Source: an uncultured Lentimicrobiaceae bacterium (GTDB taxonomy: Bacteria; Bacteroidota; Bacteroidia; Bacteroidales; WCHB1-69). Taken from it: a DNA stretch of 64,000 nt. Numbering within the stretch: position 1 is the stretch's first letter; each line of letters starts with the position of its first letter. The stretch is taken from positions 40,813 to 104,812 of the forward strand of contig CAZZHH010000001.1 in NCBI GenBank assembly GCA_964653595.1, in the 5' to 3' direction. Under the pieces are notes generated by a model. That model had not been told where the DNA came from and searched no databases. It saw nothing but the letters and a program-made list of their open reading frames with translations. Positions 36,934 through 60,048 of this stretch are shown here, piece by piece. Both the position numbers and the translations under genes were made by a program.

Positions 36934-36945
36934 AAAATCAAATCA

Positions 36946-41444: not shown

Positions 41445-42174
41445 ATATTCTGTATTAAAGGATTTGTATTGTAAAGTTAGGGAAAATAATCATGCAAGTC
41501 ATAATTTTTAAAACGTAATTGAATGTATTAACTAAAACAACTGCGGGTTGTAAAAAGACAAAGCATAGTGAGACAGCCTTGAGCCAGCGTGGGGTGAGGG
41601 TGCAATGAACGTAGTGGTTTGCGACCGAACGAAGGGGCGAGCCACCTGCGAGTGGAGCATAGGGTGCGGAGCAGAGGAAGCACGGAGTGAAGCGTAGCGG
41701 AATGAGTGCGCTGCGACCTATGTAGTCTTCTACACAAGGGGTGGCGGACTTTTTGCTTTTTTATGGGGATTGACCTTGTGAGGGTATTTGCAAAAAGTGT
41801 GACACCACGCAGCCCTTTGCGACCCGCAGGCGAGCACAAAAAATAAACAGCCGTGACCTGAAAGCTGCTGTAGAGAATGTAGGCGGAATGAAATGAAATG
41901 TCTGAGCTTGCGAAGGTTTGAATGTAATGGAGCCGTAATGAACGAAGCTGCTTGCAGGGCAAAAGAGGCTGTGGGTGAGGAAGAAGGAGGAGCTGCAATA
42001 AACATGACAGCCTTGCCGATAGGCAACCGAAGGCGTTGAAGCGCTTGTTTTCTACCTTAGAATAAATAGCACAAAAACAAGGGCTGAAACGGGCTGGCGT
42101 GATTATTTGCCGACGACTGATGACGAACACCGCTTCACCTGCTTTGGCTTTGTGGGTGGATTGCTAAAATTTTA

Positions 42175-42962: not shown

Positions 42963-45011
42963 TTAGTCGATTAATACTGATTTTTGAAGTAGTAATATGC
43001 TATTGTTATAAAATGGGACATCGGTTTTCCCTAAAATTGTGGTTGGCAGAGTTGCGATTTCTGAGACATTATCCATTGGGACAAGTATTGTCTTAGCTCC
43101 ATTTTCGGAAAGAAGGGTTACTTTATCTGCAAAGTTTAATGCTCTTTCTATAGCCCCACCTATTGATAAATTACCCAAAACGGCCAGTCCTCCTTTGAGG
43201 TTTTTCTTATATAAAGCGGAAATAATTGCAACATAAACAGCACTTCCAATACCCCCACTTATGGATGCTCCCATAAGATTGCTAACTTGAATGTTTAAAT
43301 CGTAACCAGATAAGGAGTGTTGATCATTTAGAATGCTTTTTTCGTTAGCTCTAAGGTAGTTGTATGTATTTTTAATGTTCTCCTTTACAAGTTGAGAGTT
43401 CGTTCCTGTAATGTTGGTTTTACCACTTCCTTTGAGTGCAACAACTTCGATTTTTACTAATGAGTTGTTTTCGCCATCGCTGGTAGCCGTATAACATACG
43501 CCTGGAGCAAGTGGATTTGATTCAATCAATGATGAACCTCTCTCTTCGGGTAATCCTACAAATATTTCCTCTTGCGTTTCTTTGTCGATATATGAAAAGT
43601 TGGTGTCCCAAAACTCCATACCTCCAATTCTTTTAAGTTGTTCTTTCACTCTACGGCGCATTTCCATTGCTATTACCAGATATTCTTTAATATCCTCTTT
43701 GTTGAATTCGCCATTTGGGTGCATAAGTTTAATTAAACCAGAAACAATTTTACGTACTGATTTGGAATCTCTTTGTTTAATATGCGACCCTAACGTGAAG
43801 TATTGATCAATGGCATCGTAGTATGTTGTTTTTCGTTGTGATTTTAGCACTTCGGAAAAGAAATCGGTACTAAATCCAAAGTGGTTTGTGAAATTTTGAG
43901 GACTAAATTTGGTTATTTCCCAACCCGGAAGGAATAAATTAATACGATCTAAAAAAGCCGTATCATAATTTACTTCATCAGACAACGGACTAAATAGATG
44001 TGATGTTTGCAAAACAGTTTCAACGGGTTGATTTATGTTACCGTTTAAAATTATGGAAGCTGAACCTGTTATTTCACCACCCTTTGCCCTAGAAAACGAA
44101 CCCGATTCCATGTAATCTTTCATTAAGGGTATAGCATCTCTATCTTTAAATAATTTATCGGTACTTTCATCAAAGCAAATGGTGTCCCATAATCCAACGG
44201 CACCAACTCTGCCTGTTGTGTTATTTACAAATAATTGGGCTACAGAGCCTTGACCGCCAGAGATTAATATTGCATAAGGTGTAATTTCTTTGTAGATGTA
44301 TGATTTCCCTGAAGAACGAGGGCCTAATTCTACCATATTGAAATTAGCTTCAACCAATGGAATTAAACGACAGAGTAACAAGTTTAATTTTCGAGCATCA
44401 AAACCTTCACTATTAGGCTCATAACCAGCACTTCGGAGTAATAATGTTTTCCACTCCTCTTTGCTAAACTCGTTTCTTTTATTCGCTATTTTTGAATTAT
44501 CAAAACTAGACAATTGTATTGGTTTTATATCACGAACCACAAATGGATACACAACTGAGCCTACTGTTATCATCGGATCGTATTCCATTTCGATTATAGC
44601 CCAAATTCCACCTAATAACAGCTTTTCGTGCGATGTTACTAGATCATCGTTTATATTCGCTTTTTTGATATTACTATTGCTGATGTTTGCCCAATATCTA
44701 TCGCGCTGAGGGTCTAAATCGACTGATATTTTGTCGATAATTTTAAATCGCCCTTTTTCTCTAAGTTTAGATTGTATCAGCGTGCTTTCTTCTGGATTGA
44801 CATAATGATTGCGCAGAACGGATTTAACATTCTCCATACCTTCTTTCAACTTTTCTTCGTCTTCGGTACTGCACGTATTGGCGAGTAAATATTCCAATAC
44901 AAATGCAGGAACATTTGCACCACCCTTTATAATACCTACTAAGTCTTTTTTTACCACATAGCCTCTAAAATGATCTAAGGCTTTTTTATCTAATTCATCT
45001 AGTATTATCAT
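42963..45011 (-). CDS. brxL: BREX system Lon-like protein BrxL
   Basis: 682 aa. N-terminus LDHFRGYVVKKDLVGIIKGGANVPAFVLEYLLA is typical of BrxL. P-loop GPRSSGKSY, and a Lon-protease-like C-terminal domain. Terminal position in the BREX-1 order. Confidence 0.85.
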   Translation of the reverse strand: MIILDELDKKALDHFRGYVVKKDLVGIIKGGANVPAFVLEYLLANTCSTEDEEKLKEGMENVKSVLRNHYVNPEESTLIQSKLREKGRFKIIDKISVDLDPQRDRYWANISNSNIKKANINDDLVTSHEKLLLGGIWAIIEMEYDPMITVGSVVYPFVVRDIKPIQLSSFDNSKIANKRNEFSKEEWKTLLLRSAGYEPNSEGFDARKLNLLLCRLIPLVEANFNMVELGPRSSGKSYIYKEITPYAILISGGQGSVAQLFVNNTTGRVGAVGLWDTICFDESTDKLFKDRDAIPLMKDYMESGSFSRAKGGEITGSASIILNGNINQPVETVLQTSHLFSPLSDEVNYDTAFLDRINLFLPGWEITKFSPQNFTNHFGFSTDFFSEVLKSQRKTTYYDAIDQYFTLGSHIKQRDSKSVRKIVSGLIKLMHPNGEFNKEDIKEYLVIAMEMRRRVKEQLKRIGGMEFWDTNFSYIDKETQEEIFVGLPEERGSSLIESNPLAPGVCYTATSDGENNSLVKIEVVALKGSGKTNITGTNSQLVKENIKNTYNYLRANEKSILNDQHSLSGYDLNIQVSNLMGASISGGIGSAVYVAIISALYKKNLKGGLAVLGNLSIGGAIERALNFADKVTLLSENGAKTILVPMDNVSEIATLPTTILGKTDVPFYNNSILLLQKSVLID

Positions 45012-45022
45012 AATTTATACGT

Positions 45023-47260
45023 TTATAAAAGGCCACCTAAATCTCTGGCAACATTTTGTTTTACAACACCTTTATCTAATTGTTCTTTGGTTAATGCATC
45101 GAGCACTTTAATTTCAATTTCTGAATATGAATCAAATCTGAACTCTTTTTTTATCTCGCTACCTTTAGCAATGGTAATTATATCACTTTCGTTTATTTTT
45201 TGATTGTTGGCAAAAAAGAGAATGATTATTTTACGTTCTGTGGTAAAAAGATCCGATGCATTTGAAGTTGCTTTTATTTTTATCGAGAACAAATCTCCAG
45301 TTATATCTTTCAATTCTTCTTTGTTGGCTATTTCAATTTGTAGTTGATTTTGAGTATTGGTTTTATTTGACCATTTCAAACATGGAATAATTGTTTCTTG
45401 TGGCGATAACCCCCCATGACTGTAGCCATAAACTCCTGTAGATTTGAAAGGGCCTAGTCTTTTTGCAAAATAACAGTAATTGAAATCGCCATACTTTAGC
45501 TCCTGTTCAATCAATAAATCGGAATCTATTTTTTGACTGATTTCGGTTCTGATGTATCGTTCGCTTTTGTTTGTTTTACCATTAAAATCAACCTCTATCT
45601 TATCCGAATCAACAAGAATTCCGGTTAATACAAAGCCATGGTCGGTAAGTAAAAATACATTTTCGTAGCCGTTTTTAAGCAGTTGTTCAATTTTGGAGGC
45701 ATACGTTTCGGACACTTTTTCAAAATGTTTAAGTGCCTTTTGCTGATAGGTCTCTCCCAATTTATCAGGGTCTTTATAACTACAAATTAGATAGTTATAC
45801 TTATCCGTCAACTCGTTTACACTTTCCAAATCAATGAATCCAATTTCTTTGTCTGGATTTTGTTTCAAAATAAAATTTTCTCGGTCTTGCTTTTTTGCCA
45901 TCACTTCACCCGTTTCAACATACAACTGACTCATATTATGTTCGGTTTCGGAGGGGAGGTCTGCAAACAAATATTGATTGTCTTTATCTAAAGGGTACTC
46001 TCTGGAAACTTTTGCAATGATATCTTGAGCAAACTCAAAAGAGACCCCATCACCGACAATAATAGCCGTTTTGGTGATGTTATTATTTAAAATTTCTTGG
46101 ATCTTGCCTGTTTGATTTGATTTGTAGGTATCGATATAACGGAACCATTTTTCGAAGAAAATAATGACGATGTTTTTGTAATAATCCTGTAATGGTTCAA
46201 TTAAGTATTGTTTTTCTAAAAACTCGGTGTAAAGTCCTCTGATAGCCCTATCTAGTTTATAAAAGTGGTTTACATAAAACGAAGCACATTCAGATAACGA
46301 GGCTAACTGATTAATATTTTTGACATCAAATTCTAAAAGTGTTTTTACATGCGACCAAAAAGCAATGTTTAAGTGCTTTATGACCCTGTTGCTAATGCGT
46401 TGGTTTATTTTAGGAATAAAATTGCTAATATATCCTTTATTGGACATGTTTTTACCAAGTTCTTCTAACCATTGTTCATCGATACTTCGGAATGGATGTG
46501 AAGGATGAATGGCGAAAATATCCGACTTTGGTGATAATTTGTATTTCTTGAGATAGGAATCTAAAGAGTTGATATATGTTTTACTGTCTAACCAATTGTT
46601 ATAGACTTCTAACAACACTTTGTTTGGGTTGTTGTTTGCTAACCCATCAAACAGGTAGTTTACCACTTCTGTTGCCAGAGTTGTGGCAGGTTTTGCCACA
46701 TAAGTTTGCCCTATTAATTCATTTATTTTTTTAAAAAAGAGCACTTGTACCATTGCATCGTAGTTTTGGAGATACGATTGGGGACTATCTAAAAATGGCA
46801 ACAACTCTTTTTCAAGGTTAAATATTTCAGACGAACCAGTGATACCCAAATTCATCCAATATGTTTTATCCTTACCAATACTTACTTTTGCAGCTGAAAT
46901 CAATTCGTCTTTCTCTAAATGCAGATTGATGTTGCAATTGCTTAGTGCTTTATCTTTTATGTAATTCTGTAAATACTTGATTTCGAGGCATCCATTAGTT
47001 TCGCAATACTCACGAATAAATTTCAACTGTACTTTTGGGTTGGTGGTGTATATTACCACTTTAGCCCCTATGTTGTAGATTTTTTCAACTTCAAATTTTA
47101 CTCGCAATTCTTCGATTTCGGTAGAAGCAGTATATAACTGGTAATCATCTTTGATTAAATCCAAAAGAAATGCAGCCTCTTTGGATTCATCGATGAATAC
47201 CGCAATTTGCTTTGTTTTTAATATTGCTTCTATGTCTTTTTTAAACCAAGTATCTATCAT
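45023..47260 (-). CDS. pglZ: BREX system alkaline-phosphatase-superfamily protein PglZ
   Basis: 745 aa. PglZ-domain core (IVGDGVSFEF ... VFLLTDHGFVLTG) and a position between pglX and brxL. Confidence 0.85.
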   Translation of the reverse strand: MIDTWFKKDIEAILKTKQIAVFIDESKEAAFLLDLIKDDYQLYTASTEIEELRVKFEVEKIYNIGAKVVIYTTNPKVQLKFIREYCETNGCLEIKYLQNYIKDKALSNCNINLHLEKDELISAAKVSIGKDKTYWMNLGITGSSEIFNLEKELLPFLDSPQSYLQNYDAMVQVLFFKKINELIGQTYVAKPATTLATEVVNYLFDGLANNNPNKVLLEVYNNWLDSKTYINSLDSYLKKYKLSPKSDIFAIHPSHPFRSIDEQWLEELGKNMSNKGYISNFIPKINQRISNRVIKHLNIAFWSHVKTLLEFDVKNINQLASLSECASFYVNHFYKLDRAIRGLYTEFLEKQYLIEPLQDYYKNIVIIFFEKWFRYIDTYKSNQTGKIQEILNNNITKTAIIVGDGVSFEFAQDIIAKVSREYPLDKDNQYLFADLPSETEHNMSQLYVETGEVMAKKQDRENFILKQNPDKEIGFIDLESVNELTDKYNYLICSYKDPDKLGETYQQKALKHFEKVSETYASKIEQLLKNGYENVFLLTDHGFVLTGILVDSDKIEVDFNGKTNKSERYIRTEISQKIDSDLLIEQELKYGDFNYCYFAKRLGPFKSTGVYGYSHGGLSPQETIIPCLKWSNKTNTQNQLQIEIANKEELKDITGDLFSIKIKATSNASDLFTTERKIIILFFANNQKINESDIITIAKGSEIKKEFRFDSYSEIEIKVLDALTKEQLDKGVVKQNVARDLGGLL

Positions 47261-47262
47261 AA

Positions 47263-48303
47263 TTATGGGTGATTAATTGTTGGTAATGGAAATTGCGTTT
47301 CAAATGTCCACTTGAGATCGTTGATGGTATTTTTGAATTCAGTCAGTGTGTCAATAATTTCGTCAAAGGAGGGTGAATCGCCATATATCATTTGTTGTTG
47401 CATTATTTTGTAATCAGCTCTCCATGCTTCTATAAAATCAGCATTAGGAATGGGATTAATTGATTGTGGTTGATGCAAATTGTAATCAACACCACCTACT
47501 TTAGTAAAATGATATCGGTGATTTACTATGGTTTCGTATAGTACTTTATCATTAATGGCATCTAAAGCAAATTGGTTTTTCGACAATTGATAGACGTCGT
47601 ATAAATGTCGGCTTAACCTATTCACTCTTGCTTTTTCAGCAGGTCGGTGAAACTCCTCGTGCAATAGGAATATTTTCTCTAAAAATGTCCTTTCTGGATT
47701 TACCACGGGTATATTTATTGATGCTTGTGCAAAAGCCGCTTGAGGATAATTTTCATCTACCAAAGATAACACGTTTTTGTTTGTAAACGGCTCTCTTAAA
47801 GAACGACAACCAATTTCTACCTGAACCTTTGGCTGGATATACCCTGGTGTTGGAATTACATTTGGATAGTATATTTCAATTACGCTTGGATCTTGATCGC
47901 TGTCGGGTGTTTCTATTAATTTTAAGATTACATCGGAGAATCCTTTTTCGGAAAATTTATGTTGAAGGTCTATTATGAAAATAGTTGAAATATAGGTATA
48001 TGCTGACTTCCGTAATGCTGTGCGTTTGCTTTTTGATAGATTGCCTTCAACCCCAAGGAACTTTCTATCTAGTGCCAAGTCTATGTCTTCCGAAAAACGG
48101 TCGATTAATCCCCACGCTTTGCTTAGCGAAGTGCCACCTTTAAATACTAAGTGGTTTCCAATTTCCATTTCGAAAATCAGCGCCAAGGTTTGCACTACCC
48201 ACCAGTCTTTTTCAACGGCGTAAGCTGCCATACCAGTATCTTCGGCAATTTGAGTATATGCTCTGATTTTGGTTTCTGCGGGCGTGTTATACCATCTATT
48301 CAT
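47263..48303 (-). CDS. abiEii: AbiEii/AbiGii-family nucleotidyltransferase toxin (DUF1814)
   Basis: FKGGTSLSKAWGLIDRFSEDIDL nucleotidyltransferase motif. 346 aa. The start overlaps the upstream antitoxin gene by 8 nt. Confidence 0.8.
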   Translation of the reverse strand: MNRWYNTPAETKIRAYTQIAEDTGMAAYAVEKDWWVVQTLALIFEMEIGNHLVFKGGTSLSKAWGLIDRFSEDIDLALDRKFLGVEGNLSKSKRTALRKSAYTYISTIFIIDLQHKFSEKGFSDVILKLIETPDSDQDPSVIEIYYPNVIPTPGYIQPKVQVEIGCRSLREPFTNKNVLSLVDENYPQAAFAQASINIPVVNPERTFLEKIFLLHEEFHRPAEKARVNRLSRHLYDVYQLSKNQFALDAINDKVLYETIVNHRYHFTKVGGVDYNLHQPQSINPIPNADFIEAWRADYKIMQQQMIYGDSPSFDEIIDTLTEFKNTINDLKWTFETQFPLPTINHP

Positions 48304-48907
48304 GGATGTTGTTTTTAAGTGCTTTGCGCATAATTACTCTAATCCATTCGGGGGCCAGACGAATGTCGTGTTCTAATCTCGATTGTTCTTCTTTTTGAAG
48401 TTGTTTTAGAATTATATTAATTTCTTGTTCAGTTACATTCTCTTTGCCAATTACTTTGAGGGCTTGTATCACCAAACTACTTATTTTGCCTATGGATGAT
48501 AAATTTTTAGGGGCAGATTTTTTGAAAAGAATTTTGCGTTTACCTAAATCTATTTTTCGTGCAGCACCATCGGTAAGATAAACGGCATTCATAGGTACTT
48601 GGGTTGATAAACCAAGTGCATTAAGTGCCATAACTCCTGTGGGAACTATCCGCGCTTTGTCTCTTTTGCCAATGGCTTCGGCAATGGCTTCGGTGCTAGG
48701 TTTTATTAAACCCAAAACAGGGTCGTTTTCTAAACGTGCATAAATACCACGAGCCACCCGAAAAACCTCTCCTTTTTCCACCATTCTCTCTAATGCTTTT
48801 GCTATGGCTTTAGCTGAGCCAAAAGAGAGAAAATCTTCCACAAAAAAGAGCGAACCCCTCTTGGCTTTTTTAATTTTAATAATTACTTTATCATCAATAC
48901 TTTGCAT
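48296..48907 (-). CDS. abiEi: AbiEi-type antitoxin / transcriptional autoregulator (DUF6088-like)
   Basis: 203 aa. N-terminal winged-helix-like segment (SAKAIAKALERMVEKGEVFRVARGIYA). Coupled to the AbiEii gene, with two inverted-repeat operators upstream. Confidence 0.7.
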   Translation of the reverse strand: MQSIDDKVIIKIKKAKRGSLFFVEDFLSFGSAKAIAKALERMVEKGEVFRVARGIYARLENDPVLGLIKPSTEAIAEAIGKRDKARIVPTGVMALNALGLSTQVPMNAVYLTDGAARKIDLGKRKILFKKSAPKNLSSIGKISSLVIQALKVIGKENVTEQEINIILKQLQKEEQSRLEHDIRLAPEWIRVIMRKALKNNIHE

Positions 48908-48926
48908 CTGATATTAGATTAATTTG

Positions 48927-48955
48927 TGTCGCAAATATAGTATAAATTTGCGACA
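48927..48955 (-). promoter_or_regulatory. Candidate AbiEi operator IR1 (10-9-10 inverted repeat)
   Basis: tgtcgcaaat-N9-atttgcgaca with perfect arms, 20 nt upstream of the abiEi start. Confidence 0.6.
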
Positions 48956-48972
48956 TAAATAGGTTTTTATTC

Positions 48973-49001
48973 TGTCACAAATTTAGATAAGATTTGTGAC
49001 A
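48973..49001 (-). promoter_or_regulatory. Candidate AbiEi operator IR2 (10-9-10 inverted repeat)
   Basis: tgtcacaaat-N9-atttgtgaca with perfect arms and the same architecture as IR1. The centres are 46 bp apart. It lies about 10 nt below the pglX stop. Confidence 0.6.
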
Positions 49002-49010
49002 AAACTAGGT

Positions 49011-52000
49011 TTACCAATCGGCATTCAAATATTTCTTCAACTGTCCGGCATTTAATACTTCGTAAGCCAACATGCCTTTGTTTTGCAATGGGGCTATGTT
49101 TTTGCCTACGCCATCGTCGAGTATGGGGTTGTAGCCTTCGGTTAACAGCTCATCTATTTTTGCTTTGAAACGTTCTATCTCTTTGAGTTGCTTGTAGATT
49201 ATGTCTTTTTCGTTTTGTGCTTTGGCAGAAGTGTCGTTGGCTAAATCGGATTGACGATTAACCAATGCCCGTTCGCGCTGTTCGATGTGAACGGAGCGTA
49301 GGCTGAGCAGTTTATCGCGATTCCATTTGTAGATAATGATGTAACAATCGAACCCATGCTCCGCACCACTGGTTAAATGCCATATAAACGGCGTTTTGGG
49401 TAAATACATAAACAAGTTGAGATGATCGGAAAGTGCCTTGAAAAAGTCGTGGTTGATGTATTCGTTAAGTTCTTTGCCCAATAGACTATCAAACGAAGAG
49501 TATTGCGCCATGCTAAACCCTTTTTGGATAAACTTTTCTTCTATTCGTTCTAACAATATTTTTTCGCCAGCATTGGGCACTAATGGAATGATGCCATCTT
49601 CGTCTTCCATTAATATTTCGCGAATCATATCGGCTAAAAACTCCATGGCCAAATCGTTCATGCGTTGTTTTGGTATGATGTTGCTCTCTTTAAACCAATA
49701 CCAAACATTGATCGGATTTACTTTGTGGCGAATGCAAAACTCTTCCAAATCGTTGTTGCTTTGGTATAGCGCAGGAAACTCTTGCACAATGGTTTCGCGC
49801 TCTTGTGCTGTAAATTGGTGTTCGGGTAAGTTTTGGATGTAATCTTTGATATTATCTAACGGAAACTCTGCCACTTCGTTTTGCAAATAGGCTTCTTTTG
49901 CCTCTTTTGCAACGGGCAACCCACCTATGCTTTCGCCTTCTTTGGCTAATACCATGGCTTTGTCGGCAGCAGTTAACTCATATACTTCAAATATTTTTTC
50001 GTTTATGATGGCTTCGTTTAGGAGGACTTGGGTTATTAGATGATTTTCATAGTTAAAATAAAAAATCAGATTACTTTTCCAATCCAAAACAGCTTGATTG
50101 TCAAACATAGTTGAAGTAAAATCTCTCTCATAAATATGATAACTATTAATTTGTTTAGTTATAGCAACATTTCTCGAGGATAAAAGAGTAATGCATTTTT
50201 CTAATTTTTCTTTTGGAATAACAAATGGAACTCTTTGCATATCCCCAACTTGTGCATTTACTGTAGGATTGAGACAATCGATAATATACTGTGTAAACGG
50301 GGAATTGAAAAATGCTAAATTATAAAAATTGTTTTTGAATTTTTTTATTGAAAAAATAGAACTACCGCCAACATCAAAAATACAATCACTTGGTAGAAAT
50401 CTATATGAAGGACCTTTAGAACCTGAGGCAGAATAAGTCACACCCTCTTTAAAATACACATCTTCATTTTGAGGTCTTGATCTCTGCTTTCCATTTTCAT
50501 CATTAAAATTTCTGATTAAATCACCATTATTTTTCCAATTTACTTTTAACCATAAATTACCTTCCCACTTTTTATATGGGCCGCCCTTAGCATATGTTAC
50601 CCATTCATTTTTGGCAATATTCTCATCCTTTGGTTTTAATTCCCACCAAAATCGAAGAAATCTATTATTATCCGCTGTGGCAAGTCCTTGACAATTTCTT
50701 AAAATATCTTTGACCGAATCTCCTTCAAACTTTTCCCTAAACTCATCGCTTATCCAATAAATAAATGGGTATGATTTTATGATTTTAAGTTTGGATTGCG
50801 GTAAAGAATAGTTATTAGAATGATTTACTCCCGTAATTAATTTATCATACGCTTCTACAAAGGCATCATATCTTTTACCTTCGTAAATATGATTGAGTTT
50901 AATGAAAGGGGTTTCCTTTTCTTTTTGAGTTTCCTTTTCTAACACATACATAGCTGCATCAACCCTTGCAGATGGATGGAACATGCCTAAATATCCCCAC
51001 TCTACAAATAAATCAATGTGCGTTTTTTCCAAAATAAATTTTCTAACATCTTCAAATGTTTTGATGTACATAAAAGTTGGTGGATGAACCATTGCCACTT
51101 TACCTTTTTCATTAGTTAGCTCAAAGCATCGTTTTATAAATGTAGCGTATAGGTTGGTGTTAAACTTATATGGTTTTGCATAATTGGTATCGATATATTT
51201 TTTAAGTTCGGCACCAAAATCGGCGCTATCGGTATAAGGCGGGTTGGCACAGGCTATATCGTATTTTTGGGTAATTAGTTTTAAAAAAGTAATGGCATCT
51301 TTGGTTTTGTCGGTTAAAAAAGAGACGCCTTGTTTTTGTGCATATTGGGCTACCGCTGTTTCGAGGTTTATGAAGAAATCCTTTTCAAACTCTTCGTATT
51401 GGGCTATTTCTGCACTCAAAAACAGATCTAGCTCGCCACGTTTTTGCTTGGTATAAAGCTCTTCTACTTGGTGTTTGATTTTTTCTTCAATTTTCACCAA
51501 AGAGCCAAATTTGTGGGCTTGTTGCAGGTCAGTCCAAATTTCCGCTACAATTTTTCGTTGGTTATCGTCAGTTATTCCGGTTTCAAAAATTGGCAACACC
51601 TCCTGATAATCGGGCAAATAGAAATCGGAAGAGACCACATTAAAATGCAAAGCGGTTGTGTTTCTGTTTTTTTGTTTTGCTTTAATCCACAATCCCAACT
51701 GTGCCAATTGAGCGGCACGGTCGTCTAAATCAATACCATGGAGGTTGTTTTCGATAATCAGTTTCGGAATATCATCAATTTCGTAATCGGCATCGTAGTT
51801 TTCTATTTGATCGAGGTAAAGGGCATAAAAGAATGCAAAAGCGTAAAGGAGGAAATTACCCGAACCCGAAGCCGGGTCGATTAGTTTAAGCAAGTGCAAG
51901 GGCTTTGGTTCTCTTACTTTTGTTTTTGGTGCATTCCCTTCGACTGCGCTCAGGGCGGGTGCTATTTTATACAAGCTTTTTATTTCGCTATCGGGGTACA

Positions 52001-52730
52001 TTTCCAAATAGAGTTTTCCCAATGAGTTATGCACCAGAAACTCAACCACCCAACGTGGAGTATATACTTGCGATTGAAGGCTTACTTTGTTGTATTCTGT
52101 TTTGTCGCCACTATCTTTGTGTGCCTGTTTTTTTACATTGTTGTAGCTTTCGTATAGCCAACCCAAAATATCATCGCTCTGCCATATTTTAGACTCAATT
52201 TGGTCGTCTTGTTCTATTTTGTTAAAGGCATCAATAATTTCGTTAAACTCGATAACATAGGGGATGAAGGCATAGGGGTAATTTTTATGAAACAACGGAA
52301 TATCGTCGCCTAACCTATTAAACTCATGCTTAAAATATTCTCTTATCCCTTCCATTTCTTCGTTGCGCATGGCTGGGTTTTGCTCCAACCAAACTTTATG
52401 ACCAAACGATCGTCCACCATGTTCGGCTTGTTTGGTAATAATGGGCGGAAACAGTTGCAGGGCTTCCATTACTTTAATGGCTGCCAAGCGGTTGAAAAGG
52501 GTGAACGTTAATTCATCCAATGCTTTTTCGCGGGCATCGGTATAATTTCCTGTTTCTCCTTCGTGGTTTTTAATCAGTAACGCAATTTTGTTCCGTTTGG
52601 CGTGAAGTTCTATGGGAATTTTATCTGCTTCAGCCATTTTGGTAGCTCCAAAGCCCAATCGAGCAAACTGATTGTTGAAAGCCTTGTATATTAAGATTCG
52701 AATATTATCTACATGTTCGGGTAATTTCAT
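49011..52730 (-). CDS. pglX: BREX-1 N6-adenine DNA methyltransferase PglX
   Basis: 1239 aa. SAM motif I LIDPASGSGNFLLYAF, catalytic motif IV DIACANPPYTDS, and a position after brxC. Confidence 0.9.
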   Translation of the reverse strand: MKLPEHVDNIRILIYKAFNNQFARLGFGATKMAEADKIPIELHAKRNKIALLIKNHEGETGNYTDAREKALDELTFTLFNRLAAIKVMEALQLFPPIITKQAEHGGRSFGHKVWLEQNPAMRNEEMEGIREYFKHEFNRLGDDIPLFHKNYPYAFIPYVIEFNEIIDAFNKIEQDDQIESKIWQSDDILGWLYESYNNVKKQAHKDSGDKTEYNKVSLQSQVYTPRWVVEFLVHNSLGKLYLEMYPDSEIKSLYKIAPALSAVEGNAPKTKVREPKPLHLLKLIDPASGSGNFLLYAFAFFYALYLDQIENYDADYEIDDIPKLIIENNLHGIDLDDRAAQLAQLGLWIKAKQKNRNTTALHFNVVSSDFYLPDYQEVLPIFETGITDDNQRKIVAEIWTDLQQAHKFGSLVKIEEKIKHQVEELYTKQKRGELDLFLSAEIAQYEEFEKDFFINLETAVAQYAQKQGVSFLTDKTKDAITFLKLITQKYDIACANPPYTDSADFGAELKKYIDTNYAKPYKFNTNLYATFIKRCFELTNEKGKVAMVHPPTFMYIKTFEDVRKFILEKTHIDLFVEWGYLGMFHPSARVDAAMYVLEKETQKEKETPFIKLNHIYEGKRYDAFVEAYDKLITGVNHSNNYSLPQSKLKIIKSYPFIYWISDEFREKFEGDSVKDILRNCQGLATADNNRFLRFWWELKPKDENIAKNEWVTYAKGGPYKKWEGNLWLKVNWKNNGDLIRNFNDENGKQRSRPQNEDVYFKEGVTYSASGSKGPSYRFLPSDCIFDVGGSSIFSIKKFKNNFYNLAFFNSPFTQYIIDCLNPTVNAQVGDMQRVPFVIPKEKLEKCITLLSSRNVAITKQINSYHIYERDFTSTMFDNQAVLDWKSNLIFYFNYENHLITQVLLNEAIINEKIFEVYELTAADKAMVLAKEGESIGGLPVAKEAKEAYLQNEVAEFPLDNIKDYIQNLPEHQFTAQERETIVQEFPALYQSNNDLEEFCIRHKVNPINVWYWFKESNIIPKQRMNDLAMEFLADMIREILMEDEDGIIPLVPNAGEKILLERIEEKFIQKGFSMAQYSSFDSLLGKELNEYINHDFFKALSDHLNLFMYLPKTPFIWHLTSGAEHGFDCYIIIYKWNRDKLLSLRSVHIEQRERALVNRQSDLANDTSAKAQNEKDIIYKQLKEIERFKAKIDELLTEGYNPILDDGVGKNIAPLQNKGMLAYEVLNAGQLKKYLNADW

Positions 52731-52741
52731 CTGCTTATTTA

Positions 52742-55700
52742 TTAATTGTTGATAGTCAATTCAATTTCGTCGTCGTTGCTCATTCCAGCAATTCCCTGAA
52801 TTTGAGCAGCTAATAACGCTCTATATTCGGAGGCTTTCATCACTTTTTTAGCAACTGTAAATTGAATTTTCTTAGCCTGTTTAGGTTCTCCTGGAGTTGC
52901 AAGTTTTGGCACCTCTTTAATGAAGTTGCTTTTCAGTATTTGCAATTCCGCATCTTTGTTAGGAGCTAAATCAATATAATTCAAAATATCGGTTAACGAG
53001 TAGTTGCAATCCTGACACGAAACCTGATACTCTAAACGCACATCGTTTATGATTCTTCCAGTACAAATCTCCATTAACGATTTAAGACTTGATGTGTTTT
53101 GGGTATTGAGTTCGGCAGGATAATTTTCAGCCAAATCGGCTTGAGCTGCAACAATATTTGTTTTAATTGTGGTGTAAAGATCAGCCATTTTTTTAGCATT
53201 GGCCTTCATTAAAAGATAATATTCATCTTTTATGGCTTGAGCTGCTTTCTGTATATCGGTATAGTTGTCAATTACATCTTTTGCCATTGCTTTATCGAAG
53301 TTTTCGGCATTAGAAGCAACTATGGCATTGGTGATATTTGCTTTACTTAATTCGCTTTTAACGGCTGTAACAAAGCGATTATAGCCTTTAATTTTATCGA
53401 GGTTCTTTTTGATAAATGCTTCCGCTTTTACAATGGATCTTATAGCCTCTGAATATTCATCTTTACCGGATAAGAAATCTTCGGCTTTTTCGATGTAATT
53501 GGCTTCGGTAGTCTTAGAAATGTATTTTTGCAATATCTCTTTCTGCATCAACACTTTGTTGAATTGTTTATCGAAATCGGGTACCGTATTTTTTAATGCA
53601 ATAACGGTAGTAATAAAGTTGTCGGCAAAATAGGTAATGGCATCGGCTAGTTCGAAATCGGTACTTTCGTATTTGATTTTTAGCTTGGTGTATTTTTCAA
53701 TTTCCAAATCTAAAAGTGTTTTTACAATTTCGCTTTTTTGCGATGCACTCAAGGTTTTTGTTATGGATTTGAAACGGGCAGTTTTATATTTAGCCCCCGA
53801 ATTAAATACTTCTTGCACTGCTTTGTCGCTATACGAGAAGTATTCGGTATCGTTGAATTTAACCACCAATCGGCCAGCACGTAACAAAACGGCTAAAGAT
53901 GTAGATAACGTGCCATAGGAATAGCCCCAAGGCGCCATCGACAATTCATCTTCGAGGCTCTTGCCATCAATATATCGATTGTTTATTTTAGCCGTAATTT
54001 CTTCAATTACCTTTAAACTATCGCCCACAAAATTACCATTGGCATCAAAAAACTTAAACTCATCTCCCGAAAAGTACTTATTGAGTTTATCGGCACTAGT
54101 TTCTTTTAACACTTTATCGCCTATAGACTCTGGCAACTGACTGGTAAGCCGTTTGGTGTAAATATTCTTTATCAGTTTTTTTTGCGTTTCATTGATTGTT
54201 GTTTTGAAATTATCTTTATTTAAAAGATTTTCATCGAACAAATAGATGAGCGAACCATTCTCGTAAGCGGTTTCAATTAGATTGACCAGATCTTTTTCTT
54301 TCTCGTTTTTAATGATCGAAAACTCTCTGATAATTGGCTTCACTTTTTCGTCGTCGGTACTGCTATACTTATCTTCCATATAGCCATAACGTTTCACCTC
54401 TTCGATAAGCTTGTCAATTTCTGCAAATCGTTTGTTATCCGGCACTAATGTTATTTTATCTTTTGCGTATTGCGTGTCTAATTTCAAACTTTCCACAAAG
54501 TCTTGTCTGTCATCGTTCAAGTTAAAAAGACTGTAAACGGTAAGCTTCAGATTTTTGTTATTTGAACTAATAATCTCGTCATCAAGGTCGGTTAACACAT
54601 TGAAATTGTATGAAGCAGTGTTCTCATTGATAACTGAAACCAACCGGAATAAACTGATTTTTTTGAAATAGTTGACCAACTCTCTTTTCTTAACGAACAG
54701 TTCCACCTCAAAATCTTTCATCTCCTCCAATAATTTACCTTCGAGGTTGGATGTTATTTTGTAGTTGTTATTCGAAAACAAAAGGATCTTAGATTCCACC
54801 AATAGCGTTAATGCTTTTTCCACCAATGGTTTGGCATCATAGTAGGTAGCAATATCCGCAATATATGTTTTGGTAATGTTTTCAACCGTTGGCGATGCGA
54901 TTAATTCGGCTTCGTTAATGAAATGTATGGTTTTTAAAAGCATTTCGCCATCCAATGATATATTGTTGTTGGTTAATATACTCTTAGCCGTACTGTATTT
55001 ATTTGCCAAATCGGCTGGTGGCGAAGATTGGGCTTGTGTGCATAAATCGTGGGCGGTAGCAAATTTATGTAATTCATTTTCGATCAATGATTTTTTCAAC
55101 ACATCAAATGTTGTAATTATCATCCCACGAGCTGCAATTTGAGTTGACACTAAAGCATTGGAACTAAACAAAAACTTTTGAAGCAGATCGAATTGGTATT
55201 TGTGAAACGGATAATAGGTTGCAAATTGTTCTGCGGATACTGTTTTGGTGGGAAAGCTAGATTTTAAATTAGTGGCATCGCTTATCAACCCTTCATTTGC
55301 TTTGTAATAGGTGAGTAATTCATTTTGTGCATCTTCGGTTTTCAGCAACAGTCTGTTTTTAATAATCACATCAACCTCTGTAGATTCGATGTGCATTTTT
55401 GTTTTAAAACGGTCGGTTACTTTATTGAGTTGGCTCTTATTAATGTTTGCATTAATGATTACATCGTCTAATTTTTGTTGAGCGATGGCAATGGTCCATA
55501 CTTTTTTGCTAATACTCGAAAGGCTTTCGCTAATAGCCTGCAAATCTGTAAGTTTAAACTTGCCTTGACTTATTGCCTCACTGGCTTCGTCGAAAATAAA
55601 AACTAAGGTTTCATCGGTGTTTTTTGCTAAATATTTTTCAAGTTCATCTTTAAATTTGTTAGCATCGAAGTTTTTAATTGCAAACTCATAAACCTTTTCC

Positions 55701-56350
55701 GTGTCTGCGTATTCAATTTCGGTGTAATCCATTGCCATGTATGCCCTTCTCATGGCTTTAGCAACATCTCTATTTCCCTTTTTTATGTCGTTCCAATCTT
55801 TGCCAAATAATTCCTGCGATTTTTCTTGTAAAAAGGAGTACTTTCCATCAAGAAAAAGATCATATTCCATAAACCCATACTTATCGTTGCGGAATCCTAA
55901 TTTTTTTAGAAAGTTGGCAAAAAGGGTGAAAGCCAAGCCATTATCGGTATTTTGCTTTGCAATATCGAGGAAAATAACTTTGCTTTTTATAGCATCCAAT
56001 TTATTAATGTCGTTCTTAATAAGGCTTTCGTTGTTTACACCGCTGAGACGAGGCATAAATCGGGTTCTTGCCGGAGTGCCATTGATTGTTGGATTTGCGA
56101 TAAGGTATCCCAGTATTTTCCCAAAGTATGATTTTCCTGAGCCATAAAAGCCAGAAAGCCAGACCCCTGTTTCTTTGATGTTGCTAGTGTATTGATTTGC
56201 AAAATTAGAAATATGGTTTCCTAATCCATCGGTAACAATATACGTTTCTAATTCCGATTGTATTTCATTTTCAGATTGATCCTCTAGGTCAATGACATTT
56301 TTAATATCTTCGGAGAGATCAAGTTTTAATATGTCTTTTATTGTATTCAT
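52742..56350 (-). CDS. brxC: BREX system P-loop ATPase BrxC/PglY
   Basis: 1202 aa. Walker A GFYGSGKSYFGKILGYL near the N-terminus, Walker B-like VFIFDEASEA, and a position between brxB and pglX. Confidence 0.85.
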   Translation of the reverse strand: MNTIKDILKLDLSEDIKNVIDLEDQSENEIQSELETYIVTDGLGNHISNFANQYTSNIKETGVWLSGFYGSGKSYFGKILGYLIANPTINGTPARTRFMPRLSGVNNESLIKNDINKLDAIKSKVIFLDIAKQNTDNGLAFTLFANFLKKLGFRNDKYGFMEYDLFLDGKYSFLQEKSQELFGKDWNDIKKGNRDVAKAMRRAYMAMDYTEIEYADTEKVYEFAIKNFDANKFKDELEKYLAKNTDETLVFIFDEASEAISQGKFKLTDLQAISESLSSISKKVWTIAIAQQKLDDVIINANINKSQLNKVTDRFKTKMHIESTEVDVIIKNRLLLKTEDAQNELLTYYKANEGLISDATNLKSSFPTKTVSAEQFATYYPFHKYQFDLLQKFLFSSNALVSTQIAARGMIITTFDVLKKSLIENELHKFATAHDLCTQAQSSPPADLANKYSTAKSILTNNNISLDGEMLLKTIHFINEAELIASPTVENITKTYIADIATYYDAKPLVEKALTLLVESKILLFSNNNYKITSNLEGKLLEEMKDFEVELFVKKRELVNYFKKISLFRLVSVINENTASYNFNVLTDLDDEIISSNNKNLKLTVYSLFNLNDDRQDFVESLKLDTQYAKDKITLVPDNKRFAEIDKLIEEVKRYGYMEDKYSSTDDEKVKPIIREFSIIKNEKEKDLVNLIETAYENGSLIYLFDENLLNKDNFKTTINETQKKLIKNIYTKRLTSQLPESIGDKVLKETSADKLNKYFSGDEFKFFDANGNFVGDSLKVIEEITAKINNRYIDGKSLEDELSMAPWGYSYGTLSTSLAVLLRAGRLVVKFNDTEYFSYSDKAVQEVFNSGAKYKTARFKSITKTLSASQKSEIVKTLLDLEIEKYTKLKIKYESTDFELADAITYFADNFITTVIALKNTVPDFDKQFNKVLMQKEILQKYISKTTEANYIEKAEDFLSGKDEYSEAIRSIVKAEAFIKKNLDKIKGYNRFVTAVKSELSKANITNAIVASNAENFDKAMAKDVIDNYTDIQKAAQAIKDEYYLLMKANAKKMADLYTTIKTNIVAAQADLAENYPAELNTQNTSSLKSLMEICTGRIINDVRLEYQVSCQDCNYSLTDILNYIDLAPNKDAELQILKSNFIKEVPKLATPGEPKQAKKIQFTVAKKVMKASEYRALLAAQIQGIAGMSNDDEIELTINN

Positions 56351-56357
56351 AGTGTTT

Positions 56358-56918
56358 TTATTCTATTACAGTACATCTATATTTAGAAGATTGTTTAGCA
56401 TTGAGAAAATGGTGATGATTGCCACTAATTTCACCTGGATAAAATATCACCAATGGATGATTTAATTCCATAATTACTTTATTTTGGGTGATATTGATAT
56501 TTTCAATCCCTGTGGCATAAAAAATACCGGTTCTAATTAAAACAGGGATTAAACCATTTTTCGAGGTTTCAACAATTCCATTTATCACCTTATCGAAAAG
56601 GTCAATATGAGGGTCTTCATTATCAAAAAAAGCTTTATATGAATTAGGGCTCAAGCTTTGGTAGAACTCGAGAAACTCATCAATGCCATCTTCTGAAACA
56701 TATTCCACAAAAAGCTTACCCACATCAATAAAACTAAACAATGCAGGATCTAATTCACTAGAGGCTTTTTCTAAGTACAAATTTTCCTCATTTGGTGGAT
56801 AAGTGAACAAAATAGTATTACCGCCATTGGCATCACGTCTTAATTGTGTTCGATTTGCAATATCTAATGCCGTCTTTAGGTTATCGAATTTTGCTTTATG
56901 CTCGTCTATATATGCCAT
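56358..56918 (-). CDS. brxB: BREX protein BrxB (DUF1788)
   Basis: 186 aa. ILFTYPPNEE and C-terminal VIFYPGE segments. Second gene of the operon. Confidence 0.7.
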   Translation of the reverse strand: MAYIDEHKAKFDNLKTALDIANRTQLRRDANGGNTILFTYPPNEENLYLEKASSELDPALFSFIDVGKLFVEYVSEDGIDEFLEFYQSLSPNSYKAFFDNEDPHIDLFDKVINGIVETSKNGLIPVLIRTGIFYATGIENINITQNKVIMELNHPLVIFYPGEISGNHHHFLNAKQSSKYRCTVIE

Positions 56919-57675
56919 TGATTATGTTGTTTGTGTTAAATGAAGCCTCTACCTTGAGATCTGTACCGGTATAACTCATTTTAATCCAGTCCTTTTTCCC
57001 AATACTTTTTAACCTATCCAAAATATTCTCCTTAGTAATAAATGAGAAAGCAATCAGTTCATCCTCTAACAAGTTCGGTTTCTTGTTATCCAATAAGTTT
57101 ATCAGGTGAATAAATATTGCTAACAGCTCGTCCGTAATTTTAAGATGACAGAACCTCTTTTTTAAATTTCCTTCAAGCAAATGTAGCTTTTTAAGGGTTG
57201 TTAGATATTTTGAAGCAATGGTGTCAATTGTAATTTCAGACCATTTTCCCTTTAATTCTGGGTTTCTATCAATTAAATCTTTGATGTAGGCAATCACGAC
57301 CTCTTTGGGTAGTTCTGCCCTGCCTTGAAAATAGTATTTTAAAAAAAGGTCACGATTGAGTTCGAAAAAAAGTTTATTATTGAAACTAAATAGCCAAAAC
57401 AGAAGAATTGCTTGCGCTGATTCATCGTCACTATACTGTTTTATCACCAGAGAAGCCAGTTCGTTGACATGATTTTCCTTATTGATAAAAGCAGAATTTA
57501 ATGCAGTCAGAAACCGTTTGCGGGATTTTTCTGTTCTAAAATCAAATTGATTATTCGTAACTAAAATTGATTGCAACTCAACCTGATCGGTCAATAATAA
57601 TGGCAATGCCAGATAAATTAAATGATAATCAGGAATACTGCCAATTATATTTATATCGGTATTGTAATTTGTCAT
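56896..57675 (-). CDS. brxA: BREX protein BrxA (DUF1819)
   Basis: 259 aa and the first gene of the operon; it overlaps brxB by 23 nt. The assignment rests mainly on position and size. Confidence 0.65.
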   Translation of the reverse strand: MTNYNTDINIIGSIPDYHLIYLALPLLLTDQVELQSILVTNNQFDFRTEKSRKRFLTALNSAFINKENHVNELASLVIKQYSDDESAQAILLFWLFSFNNKLFFELNRDLFLKYYFQGRAELPKEVVIAYIKDLIDRNPELKGKWSEITIDTIASKYLTTLKKLHLLEGNLKKRFCHLKITDELLAIFIHLINLLDNKKPNLLEDELIAFSFITKENILDRLKSIGKKDWIKMSYTGTDLKVEASFNTNNIINGIYRRA

Positions 57676-57702: not shown

Positions 57703-57710
57703 CAAATTTA
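57703..57710 (-). promoter_or_regulatory. Bacteroidetes -7 box (TAnnTTTG) for the BREX operon
   Basis: The reverse complement reads taaatttg, about 28 nt upstream of the brxA ATG. Confidence 0.4.
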
Positions 57711-57752
57711 CGTAAAAAAACGAATTGTAAGTTCTAATAAAAATTATTATTA

Positions 57753-57771
57753 TTTTGCAAAGTTTGCAAAA
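57753..57771. promoter_or_regulatory. 19-bp perfect palindrome upstream of the BREX promoter
   Basis: ttttgcaaa-g-tttgcaaaa, which is two TTTGCAAA palindromic octamers at 9-bp spacing. Confidence 0.45.
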
Positions 57772-57777
57772 TACAGA

Positions 57778-60048
57778 TTAACCCATTTTTTCATAATAAC
57801 CTGTTTTGGGCTGGGATAGTAAATTCCCATTCAATTTTTTCAGTAGTTCATCAACTGTGCGAGTTGGAATATTGTATTTGACTCCTAATTTAACAGCATC
57901 AGCACGTTTAAATGTTTGCGGAAGTTCATTTAATAACATTTGGTTATTGTTGCCAATTTTAAAAGAGTTGAGTTTAGTTTGGCTAGGTAGATTGTGATAC
58001 ATTAATAGACTGTGTTCTAAATAGGAACTAATTAATTGCAAGGCTATCTCGAAGTCTTTGTCTGTACAAGTTACGATTCTTGTATTGTTTTGGTTTTCAA
58101 CTTTGCGAAGTGCCGTAAAGACCATGGCAATTCGGAAAGTAATCATCCCTAATCTTTTAATGATACTGCCCGTGTCATCGCCATTTATTGTGGTAATAAT
58201 GGTTAACTGTTTCTGGAAAGTAGTGTTGAGTAATTGCCATTGGTCTAAAGTGAGTTCCACAATTGTTTCGAAATGAGCCAAATATTCAACCATGGAGAAG
58301 ACACGGAAAGATAGGGAATTGAAATATTCGGTTAGATTGACACTTGATGACTTTGGTGAAACATCTTGCCATACCTGTTCTACACTGAAAACGTAAAACA
58401 TGAATCGGCTAAAAAGACCATCTTCTGAAGATGATATCAGACCAGCAACTTGCGAAGGGGTTCCCGATAAAGCAACGGATATTCTAGGTAGTTCAACTTC
58501 GATAAATTCATTGTTTGTTTTTTTTGAGCTTGAAACTTTTTCGTGATGAAACCCTTTTCGAAGCATTTCGGAATAACCACCCCACTCTTGTTTGACGGCA
58601 TTCACCATTGTATCCGCTTCGGTTTCACACATAATGCCAGCACCTTCATTGTGGTTGAGATGTTGAATAAGTTTTGCATAACTTGTATTTGCAGGAACAA
58701 ATACTACTTTGAACGGAGGTTCGGGAGGAGCATCATCTGCTTTTTCCCCTTTTTTGAGACAACGCAAATGCATTTTGTGTTCGTTAAGTTGGTTTTCGTA
58801 AATAGCTCTTTTTTCTCTGCTCTCGCCAATGACTTTATTGTGATAGTGATTTGCAAGAGCTTTGGCGTGCTTTAACGCCCCCTTGCCACTAGCAGCAGGA
58901 GCAATGATGAAACAATAAAGATTAGGATAAACTTCCTCTTGTGAATATATACCTTTAACATTTGGCAAACAACCGCTTAAAATAGCTAAAGCACTTGTTA
59001 GGAAAACATCTCGCTGACGTTTATCTTTAAAAACGTCTGATCCTAATTTTAATATATCGGGTAAATGGTCGAAGATTTCATCGGGGAGGAATGGAGTGTT
59101 TTTAAGGTGGTCGACTGTTTCCTCCTCTGTACCTGAAGATTCATTAGTAGATTTTGCAGTTTCTGCAAACTTTGCAAACTTTGCAAATTCATCCGTATGG
59201 TTATGGTAAGCACTTTTTGCGGTTGAATTGATTTCAGAAGTGGGAAGATCGAAATTGTCATTTATTAATTGAAGTGCTTCGCTTTCGGGTATTCCAACTC
59301 GATTACAATTGGATGCTAAAAGAAAAATGAAGTTGTTGCGGTTTCCTTCGATGTAACTTTCTTTTATCTGAGTAAATTGAATAGATTCTTCGAAAAGTGC
59401 TTGGTAGTCATTATTGGTACTGGATGTGTTCAATAAATAAACTTGAGGTTTTGAATCTGTTGATTTGACAAAAGCAGATGTTGTGTCAACATTGAATGTT
59501 TGACAATCGGAATTAATGTAGGTTTCGGGATCATAAGACATGAAACAAACACGGATTACGTCTTTACATTTTGTATCGGCTAGAATTCCTAGTTTATCAT
59601 CATAATGTTTTTTTACTTGCATGAGTGCAATGTCGTGTGAATCTATATCCGTGTTCACCGGAATAAATACCTTTAGACCATTGCCACTAGGACTGATAAA
59701 AAGGGCGTAGGTTGTCTTGATTTTTTTAAACAAATTGATTGCTCTAACAAGCTCAGTTGGAAAGAGTTTGTCGTAATCTAAATGAACCATGCCATTGTAT
59801 TGATTGATGAGGTTTGTATTACGGCTTAACTTTTTGTTTTTACCAACATTGAAGGTGCATGAAGGTGTGAAGGTGAAAAGTTTGTTCTTTTGGATGTCGG
59901 CTTCTTCTTTGTTGCCAGAAGCAAGGAGAAAACGGATGTGTTCAATTTCTCCTCTGTATTTGCCTACTTTGATGTCTTGAAGAATTGAGGATAGTTCAAT
60001 ATTCTCAATGTGTTCAGTGAAATTTTTAAATATTGTAACTGTTGCCAT
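57778..60048 (-). CDS. Primase-like (VirE/BT4734-type N-terminal domain) plus DUF3987 P-loop protein
   Basis: 756 aa. The N-terminal third is typical of Bacteroidetes mobile-element VirE-like proteins. The central P-loop is IIAPAASGKGALKHA. Paired with an HTH gene upstream. Confidence 0.65.
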   Translation of the reverse strand: MATVTIFKNFTEHIENIELSSILQDIKVGKYRGEIEHIRFLLASGNKEEADIQKNKLFTFTPSCTFNVGKNKKLSRNTNLINQYNGMVHLDYDKLFPTELVRAINLFKKIKTTYALFISPSGNGLKVFIPVNTDIDSHDIALMQVKKHYDDKLGILADTKCKDVIRVCFMSYDPETYINSDCQTFNVDTTSAFVKSTDSKPQVYLLNTSSTNNDYQALFEESIQFTQIKESYIEGNRNNFIFLLASNCNRVGIPESEALQLINDNFDLPTSEINSTAKSAYHNHTDEFAKFAKFAETAKSTNESSGTEEETVDHLKNTPFLPDEIFDHLPDILKLGSDVFKDKRQRDVFLTSALAILSGCLPNVKGIYSQEEVYPNLYCFIIAPAASGKGALKHAKALANHYHNKVIGESREKRAIYENQLNEHKMHLRCLKKGEKADDAPPEPPFKVVFVPANTSYAKLIQHLNHNEGAGIMCETEADTMVNAVKQEWGGYSEMLRKGFHHEKVSSSKKTNNEFIEVELPRISVALSGTPSQVAGLISSSEDGLFSRFMFYVFSVEQVWQDVSPKSSSVNLTEYFNSLSFRVFSMVEYLAHFETIVELTLDQWQLLNTTFQKQLTIITTINGDDTGSIIKRLGMITFRIAMVFTALRKVENQNNTRIVTCTDKDFEIALQLISSYLEHSLLMYHNLPSQTKLNSFKIGNNNQMLLNELPQTFKRADAVKLGVKYNIPTRTVDELLKKLNGNLLSQPKTGYYEKMG
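59152..59187. repeat. In-frame 9-nt tandem repeat x4 (ctttgcaaa) inside the primase-like gene
   Basis: ttttgcagt ttctgcaaa ctttgcaaa ctttgcaaa, encoding FAKFAKFAETAK on the minus strand. Confidence 0.85.

Follow-up and report, generated by a model that had tools for sequence, protein, structure and literature searches.

The window analysed here is a 64,000-nt stretch of contig CAZZHH010000001.1 (positions 40,813 to 104,812 of the forward strand; GenBank assembly GCA_964653595.1) from an uncultured Lentimicrobiaceae bacterium, and all positions below are counted within it. Its segment 42963-57675 holds eight minus-strand open reading frames (ORFs) in the order brxA-brxB-brxC-pglX-[abiEi-abiEii]-pglZ-brxL. 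We read the segment as very probably a complete type 1 bacteriophage exclusion (BREX) system, carried on a tRNA-Ser island and enclosing a nested AbiE toxin-antitoxin pair. A preliminary description of this DNA listed six BREX-1 genes in canonical order on the minus strand. Its coordinates were exact, but abiEi and abiEii were overlooked; there are eight genes, not six, because the AbiE pair sits between pglX and pglZ.

BREX genes and type assignment

Read along the minus strand, the BREX genes are brxA (56896-57675, 259 aa; PADLOC BrxA 5.7e-53, Pfam BrxA 33.5 bits against a cut-off of 23), brxB (56358-56918, 186 aa; PADLOC BrxB 3.8e-40), the P-loop ATPase gene brxC (52742-56350, 1202 aa; PADLOC BrxC E=0, 1397 bits), pglX, encoding a predicted N6-adenine DNA methyltransferase (49011-52730, 1239 aa; PADLOC PglX E=0), pglZ, whose product belongs to the alkaline-phosphatase superfamily (45023-47260, 745 aa; PADLOC PglZ 3.3e-228), and brxL, encoding a Lon-like ATPase (42963-45011, 682 aa; PADLOC BrxL 1.7e-279). 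All six proteins match their PADLOC models across the full length. The genes are tightly packed, with a 23-nt overlap of brxA and brxB and gaps of 7 nt (brxB/brxC), 11 nt (brxC/pglX) and 11 nt (pglZ/brxL). Within the operon, only pglX and abiEi are set apart by a sizeable spacer, of 103 bp (48908-49010).

Related loci were collected by a PglX-based scan that kept one genome per species and yielded 57 loci (L001-L057). The best PglX matches, 69-77% identical, are in Flavobacterium and other Bacteroidota. In tblastn comparisons with these loci each BREX protein aligns essentially end to end with its relatives, and we therefore agree with the preliminary description that the BREX ORFs are intact. 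Gene order and co-orientation are the same in more than 40 of the related loci.

The system is assigned to type 1 because all six genes match BREX models. Curated NCBIfam cut-offs are reached by BrxC (BREX_BrxC, 513 bits, cut-off 400), by PglX on the BREX-1-specific model (BREX_1_MTaseX, 574 bits, cut-off 500) and by BrxL (TIGR02653, 770 bits, cut-off 628), while PglX scores far under the cut-offs of the BREX-2, BREX-5 and BREX-6 models. A Lon-like brxL is the feature that sets BREX type 1 apart from types 2-6. Here BrxL matches Pfam BrxL_N, BrxL_ATPase and Lon_C, the last at E 6.5e-15, which confirms the Lon-like C-terminus reported before. The motifs quoted at that time also recur verbatim: DPASGSGNF at residue 285 and NPPY at residue 496 of PglX, the Walker A motif GFYGSGKS at residue 67 of BrxC (with Walker B, IFDE, at 252), DHGF at residue 540 of PglZ (with GDGVS at 403 and HGG at 615) and the P-loop GPRSSGKS at residue 230 of BrxL. 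A PglZ profile built from 12 homologues and searched against solved structures matched two PglZ structures, 9zn5 (E 4.6e-9) and 9nv3; the matches cover the catalytic domain, with the D-G, PSxT, DHGF and HGG positions aligned.

PglX is unevenly conserved. In a sliding identity profile, conservation is lowest at residues ~600-900, which share 25-60% identity even with the closest relatives, versus 80-90% in the flanks. This stretch is probably the target-recognition region, and its variability is consistent with a distinct, strain-specific BREX recognition motif.

The six genes, their order and their orientation are those of the type 1 BREX systems of Bacillus cereus H3081.97, E. coli HS, Acinetobacter NEB394 and Salmonella StySA, and the methyltransferase motifs, the BrxC and BrxL P-loops and the DHGF/HGG core of PglZ are the same as well. 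The window differs from these systems in four respects. The lineage is one of Bacteroidota; the NCBIfam equivalog models do not capture its PglZ (745 aa) or its BrxA (259 aa); a primase-helicase gene, and no BrxR/WYL regulator, is found upstream of the operon; and the AbiE cassette parts pglX from pglZ. For BREX itself the locus adds little, being one more intact type 1 system from an under-studied phylum. The earlier remark that the system is known and its presence not novel stands, since BREX-1 and the embedding of defence genes in BREX have both been published.

Upstream of brxA the relatives show no conservation, and a BREX promoter or regulator common to them could therefore not be defined. 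In the window, a perfect palindrome with 11-nt arms, TATTTTGCAAA-C-TTTGCAAAATA, lies at 57751-57773, 5 nt past the primase-helicase stop codon and ~75 nt upstream of brxA. A -7-like box, TAAATTTG, is present upstream of brxA at 57703-57710, in a region that relatives do not conserve. A check for phase variation found neither simple-sequence repeats nor a second pglX copy. The 3′ half of the operon has a mosaic pattern of identities. The window BrxL is 88-90% identical to BrxL of related loci whose PglZ is at just 37-40%, and just 69-72% identical to BrxL of related loci whose PglZ is at 58-65%; these figures imply recombination at the pglZ/brxL boundary among the 57 loci.

The AbiE-like pair and the pglX-pglZ junction

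The first gene of the inserted pair (48296-48907, minus strand, 203 aa) encodes an AbiEi-like antitoxin, a predicted repressor of DUF6088 type (PADLOC AbiEi 7.7e-71; Pfam DUF6088 2.4e-70). Its score on the winged helix-turn-helix (wHTH) family AbiEi_4, 25.2 bits, is right at the cut-off of 25. The second gene, abiEii (47263-48303, minus strand, 346 aa), encodes a predicted nucleotidyltransferase toxin (PADLOC AbiEii 1.8e-103; Pfam AbiEii 4.7e-40, 138 bits against a cut-off of 22.5), in which the nucleotidyltransferase motifs GGTSL (residue 56) and DIDL (residue 73) are invariant across eight homologues. Single-sequence PDB searches with AbiEi and with AbiEii gave no match. The two genes overlap by 8 nt, and the abiEii stop lies 2 nt from the pglZ start.

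By sequence, this is a type IV AbiE-like toxin-antitoxin pair with a DUF6088-type partner, not a canonical AbiEi. Like the AbiEi-AbiEii pairs of Lactococcus and Streptococcus agalactiae and the mycobacterial MenA-MenT pair, it consists of two overlapping genes, the upstream one encoding a putative HTH protein, and like AbiE and MenT it has a DUF1814 nucleotidyltransferase toxin with GG[ST] and DxD motifs. It is unlike known AbiE in its antitoxin, which is of DUF6088 type (203 aa) and not a COG5340-type AbiEi. A 2025 survey calls the pairing of DUF6088 with AbiEii a 'novel combination' (PMC12654330).

We compared the neighbourhoods of the 80 closest metagenomic relatives of AbiEii (45-63% identity). 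In 79 of them abiEii comes after a gene for an AbiEi homologue, and about five have any BREX gene nearby. The cassette is thus not BREX-specific, and we imply no functional coupling between it and BREX.

A repeat search of the 103-bp spacer found two tandem inverted repeats on the minus strand at 48922-49004, which are putative AbiEi operators and mark a putative abiE promoter. The distal repeat, TGTCACAAAT-N9-ATTTGTGACA, spans 48970-49004 and is of CA type; the proximal one, TGTCGCAAAT-N9-ATTTGCGACA, spans 48922-48960 and is of CG type. TAnnTTTG is the Bacteroidota -7 promoter element, and the right arm of the proximal repeat overlaps such a box, here TATATTTG.

The arrangement recurs. The same inverted repeat was found 5′ of abiEi in all ten abiEi-bearing genome loci and in 55 of 65 metagenome loci, versus one of 65 in a coding-region control, and among the 55 it mostly starts 46-50 nt before the abiEi start codon. 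An exact TAnnTTTG begins 29-33 nt 5′ of the abiEi start in 42 of the 65 metagenome loci, overlapping the right arm. Between loci the central dinucleotides vary symmetrically in both arms (CG/CG, AA/TT, CA/TG, CC/GG), changes that fit a dimeric DNA-binding protein. The operator consensus derived here is TGTnnCAAA(T)-N9-(A)TTTGnnACA. We infer that AbiEi binds the repeats as operators that overlap the abiE promoter, which would give negative autoregulation. AbiEi of S. agalactiae is reportedly subject to negative autoregulation through paired inverted repeats in its promoter, and the window is like S. agalactiae AbiE in having such paired repeats. For the DUF6088-type AbiEi partners, which are uncharacterised, a conserved putative operator consensus and promoter placement are now on offer.

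The number of repeats differs between loci. The window has two 29-bp repeats, CA then CG, versus three or four tandem 29-bp inverted repeats 5′ of abiEi in L026, L037 and L048 (CA, CG, AA, CG). Such stacking may have been left behind by repeated replacement of the cassette, or the copies may serve as several operators.

Both sides of the pglX-pglZ junction could be compared in 42 of the related loci. The two genes overlap as TAATG in 14 of these and lie no more than 107 bp apart in a further four. A single small ORF of ~0.5 kb without known function occupies the junction in five loci, and cargo of 1.1-8.4 kb does so in 19, so that inserts of 0.5-8.4 kb are present in 24 of the 42. AbiEi and AbiEii are encoded directly upstream of pglZ in seven loci (L001, L002, L003, L018, L026, L037 and L038), and a truncated abiEii is found at the junction of L016. 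Other junction genes encode GmrSD/BrxU-like proteins (L001, L002, L017, L019), Gabija (L009, L046), a Schlafen AlbA_2 and Fic-like_C protein (seven loci) and AriA/OLD-like ABC ATPases (L007, L010). Judged by this gene content, accessory defence genes have repeatedly docked at the pglX-pglZ junction in this BREX lineage. The window offers a clean natural example, in which a boundary that is TAATG-coupled in uninterrupted relatives docks second-line defence genes.

Relative to the window, PglZ is 68% and AbiEii 54% identical in L038, while in L018 PglZ is 37% and AbiEii 63% identical. These incongruent similarities indicate that the cassette has been exchanged among BREX loci.

The small junction ORFs (155-195 aa) form a family with members in L014 (6943-7413), L021, L034, L035 and L047. 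The L014 ORF, the one representative checked, has no Pfam or PADLOC match and is an uncharacterised BREX-embedded gene.

Inserts at this site and defence genes within BREX have precedents. Salmonella StySA has a two-gene insert between pglX and pglZ (PMC9009780), co-oriented as in the window, which there is a pair of an ATPase and a DUF4435 protein. In the BREX defence island of pEFER, BrxU is a second, independent defence (PMC8565348), and as in the window co-oriented defence genes travel with the BREX genes. Unlike both, the window carries as cargo a type IV toxin-antitoxin pair rather than a nuclease or ATPase system, and this cargo has its own putative operator and promoter. A preprint survey found that most genes embedded in BREX, DISARM, type I restriction-modification (RM) and Hma systems are defence genes and that 96.7% of embedded genes share the orientation of the flanking system (bioRxiv 10.1101/2024.01.29.577857). 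Auxiliary effectors of BREX loci have also been catalogued (PMC12839542). Neither work mentions AbiE in its main text as cargo of BREX. Our literature search likewise found no main-text report of AbiE as BREX-embedded cargo; the figures and supplements of the embedding survey may hold one.

Possible roles of the cassette within BREX

By analogy with characterized systems, PglX together with BrxB, BrxC and PglZ would methylate adenine in a non-palindromic 6-bp host motif, and the full BREX complex, including BrxA and BrxL, would block replication of unmethylated phage DNA. AbiEii would be a GTP-binding nucleotidyltransferase toxin and AbiEi an autorepressing wHTH antitoxin; the toxin might then be freed, and growth arrested, on infection or when the locus is lost. 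The cassette appears to have arrived with its own promoter and operators, the two inverted repeats over the -7 box, and it sits at the exact point of the TAATG fusion that otherwise joins pglX to pglZ. Since abiEii ends 2 nt before pglZ, expression of pglZ and brxL most likely depends on the abiE promoter, on read-through from brxA, or on both.

Several results count against a complete type 1 BREX with a nested AbiE pair. PglZ misses the NCBIfam BREX-1 PglZ equivalog cut-off (48.8 versus 400 bits), and BrxB reaches 21.2 bits on its Pfam model, under the cut-off of 26.8. The abiEi product scores 19 bits on NCBIfam TAA_AbiEi, where the cut-off is 150, and an AbiEii profile gave marginal matches to 6y56 and to AbiGII 9hlo that cover the motif region only. 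Among the metagenomic neighbourhoods, just two of the 57 informative ones have PglZ after the abiE pair, and three of 44 have PglX before it. Our literature search found no experimental work on the DUF6088/AbiEii pairing. A scan of the operon for sigma-70 promoters and intrinsic terminators gave no enrichment, such a scan being unsuited to Bacteroidota promoters. On the BREX side, BrxA and BrxB also match no NCBIfam model, and we take PglZ, BrxA and BrxB of the window to be lineages that are poorly covered by NCBIfam and Pfam models.

The alternative that survives best, possible although we do not favour it, makes the abiE pair purely selfish: it would stabilise the island or the BREX locus by addiction, with no part in phage defence and no regulatory tie to BREX. 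The cassette does occur mostly outside BREX, and its neighbours include housekeeping genes such as mutS, those of a ComM-like Mg-chelatase and transporters. It can also persist where BREX is lost. In L048 (9995-12690) abiEi-abiEii follow the 3′ end of a truncated pglX (residues 944-1239, at 90% identity to PglX of the window), no further BREX gene was detected anywhere in the locus, and the whole looks like a decayed BREX locus with a surviving toxin-antitoxin pair. However, the neighbours are also enriched for defence-type genes (type I RM subunits, AEP-TOTE, McrB-like AAA_5 and PLD/SNF2 proteins), and genuine defence systems occupy this junction in sister loci. AbiE was first defined as an abortive-infection system, and addiction and abortive infection can coexist.

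It is unlikely that BREX is functionally compromised here, the abiE insertion having broken the translational coupling of pglX and pglZ and uncoupled expression of the two halves. The idea draws on the TAATG overlap in 14 relatives versus a separation of 1.75 kb in the window, with what look like repressor-binding repeats in between. Yet every ORF is full length and the catalytic motifs are intact. The abiE-interrupted layout is moreover kept in at least seven other genomes, with PglZ at 37-70% identity, which argues for viability, and functional BREX loci with inserts at the junction have been published (PMC9009780; PMC8565348). Finally, PglX also matches PADLOC REase_MTase_IIG (3.7e-129) and Pfam Eco57I and MmeI_Mtase, but that it is a stand-alone type IIG RM enzyme with unrelated neighbours is highly improbable, given that its best model is PglX over the full length (E=0), that it exceeds the BREX_1_MTaseX cut-off and that it is accompanied by all five partner genes, in the same orientation and syntenic across more than 40 loci.

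The tRNA-Ser island and its other genes

The integration site is a tRNA-Ser gene (anticodon CGA) at 37876-37965 on the plus strand, found by ARAGORN and scoring 50.6 bits on the Rfam tRNA model; an Rfam scan of the window returned this gene only. It is followed by a Bacteroidota-type tyrosine integrase gene (38197-39417, plus strand; Pfam Arm-DNA-bind_5, Phage_int_SAM_5 and Phage_integrase) and then by DUF6266 and DUF6943 genes. The metagenomic contig L058 encodes a rhomboid protease identical to one upstream of the tRNA-Ser gene and is 99.3% identical to the window over 34797-37963 and 98.8% over 31968-34807. Its homology ends at 37963, the tRNA 3′ end, beyond which L058 has an alpha-2-macroglobulin gene not found in the window; island-specific sequence therefore starts at 37964. 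The earlier view of BREX as cargo of a tRNA-Ser island gains support from the integrase, from the primase-helicase and excisionase-like genes beside the operon and from this empty site, although the island is not delimited. No second copy of the tRNA 3′ end, which would be attR, occurs in the window at up to three mismatches, and the island is therefore at least 26 kb long with its right end outside the data. The missing attR is a limit of the data, not evidence against the island.

Directly upstream of brxA lies the primase-helicase gene (57778-60048, minus strand), with a BT4734-like N-terminal domain, PriCT_1 and DUF3987 in Pfam and matches to PHROGs primase/helicase families. An HTH_17 excisionase-like DNA-binding protein is encoded at 60129-60413, minus strand (Pfam HTH_17 1.9e-12; PHROG excisionase families). 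Homologues of the primase-helicase gene are directly upstream of brxA in L020, L030, L036 and L037, and integrase genes adjoin other BREX loci. On this gene content, the element type recurrently carries BREX.

Past brxL, on the same strand and after 116 bp, comes a 223-aa orphan (orf223; 42175-42846), a candidate accessory gene. It has no Pfam, PADLOC, NCBIfam or PHROG match, and its 5,643 homologues are all unnamed. An AlphaFold2 model built with 40 sequences is of high confidence (pLDDT 91, pTM 0.89), is all-alpha and has no significant fold match in PDB or BFVD.

We sampled the contexts of eight orf223 homologues. In four, the homologue is the last gene of a tight operon leading from a type IIG-like methyltransferase to an SMC/ABC ATPase, and in both of these loci whose flank reaches that far a PLD-SNF2 helicase gene lies 5′ of the methyltransferase gene. 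Two of the four operons have a short prokaryotic Argonaute (pAgo) pair embedded before the orf223 homologue: in L144 (3185-5997) and L151 (4185-6997) a short pAgo and its Aga-REase-APAZ partner are encoded between the SMC-like ATPase and orf223 genes, and L148 and L150 have the same type IIG-like methyltransferase operon without the pAgo insert. The other four contexts are after a type III RM system, after Mrr, in a mobile island and with no obvious defence context. Six of the eight sampled homologues, then, come directly after a defence operon of methyltransferase or restriction type. No orf223 homologue occurs in the 57 PglX-related loci.

By its position at the end of operons, the 223-aa family becomes a candidate for a defence accessory; it is uncharacterised and recurs at the tail of methyltransferase-based defence operons. 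The preliminary description had suggested that the BREX context marks the surrounding orphans as defence neighbours; this finds support in the case of the 223-aa ORF, and in none of the other orphans.

We put forward one further proposal, as a tentative one that we think more doubtful than not: the functional unit may be larger than BREX, in one of two ways. The orf223 family may be a shared accessory of methylation-based defence systems, BREX in the window and PLD-SNF2/type IIG-like methyltransferase/SMC-ATPase operons, type III RM and Mrr elsewhere. Or the abiE promoter/operator, not the brxA promoter, may control pglZ-brxL as the effector half. The second, if true, would tie BREX output to the state of the toxin-antitoxin switch.

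The 1.4-kb stretch at 40761-42174 is without a convincing ORF, the 200-aa GTG ORF at 41528-42130 having a low-complexity translation. Patches within 41.5-42.1 kb are G+C-rich, and at 41075-41098 the minus strand has a strong hairpin that resembles a terminator. The stretch has no Rfam match at E<=1 and no plasmid match, and its folding z-scores are unremarkable on both strands (-2.25, -2.66). At the right-hand side of the window, two minus-strand island ORFs, 60718-61368 (216 aa) and 61437-63926 (829 aa), have no Pfam, PADLOC or PHROG match, and the 829-aa ORF has no plasmid tblastn match. The region of these two ORFs is low in G+C, at ~29-30%.

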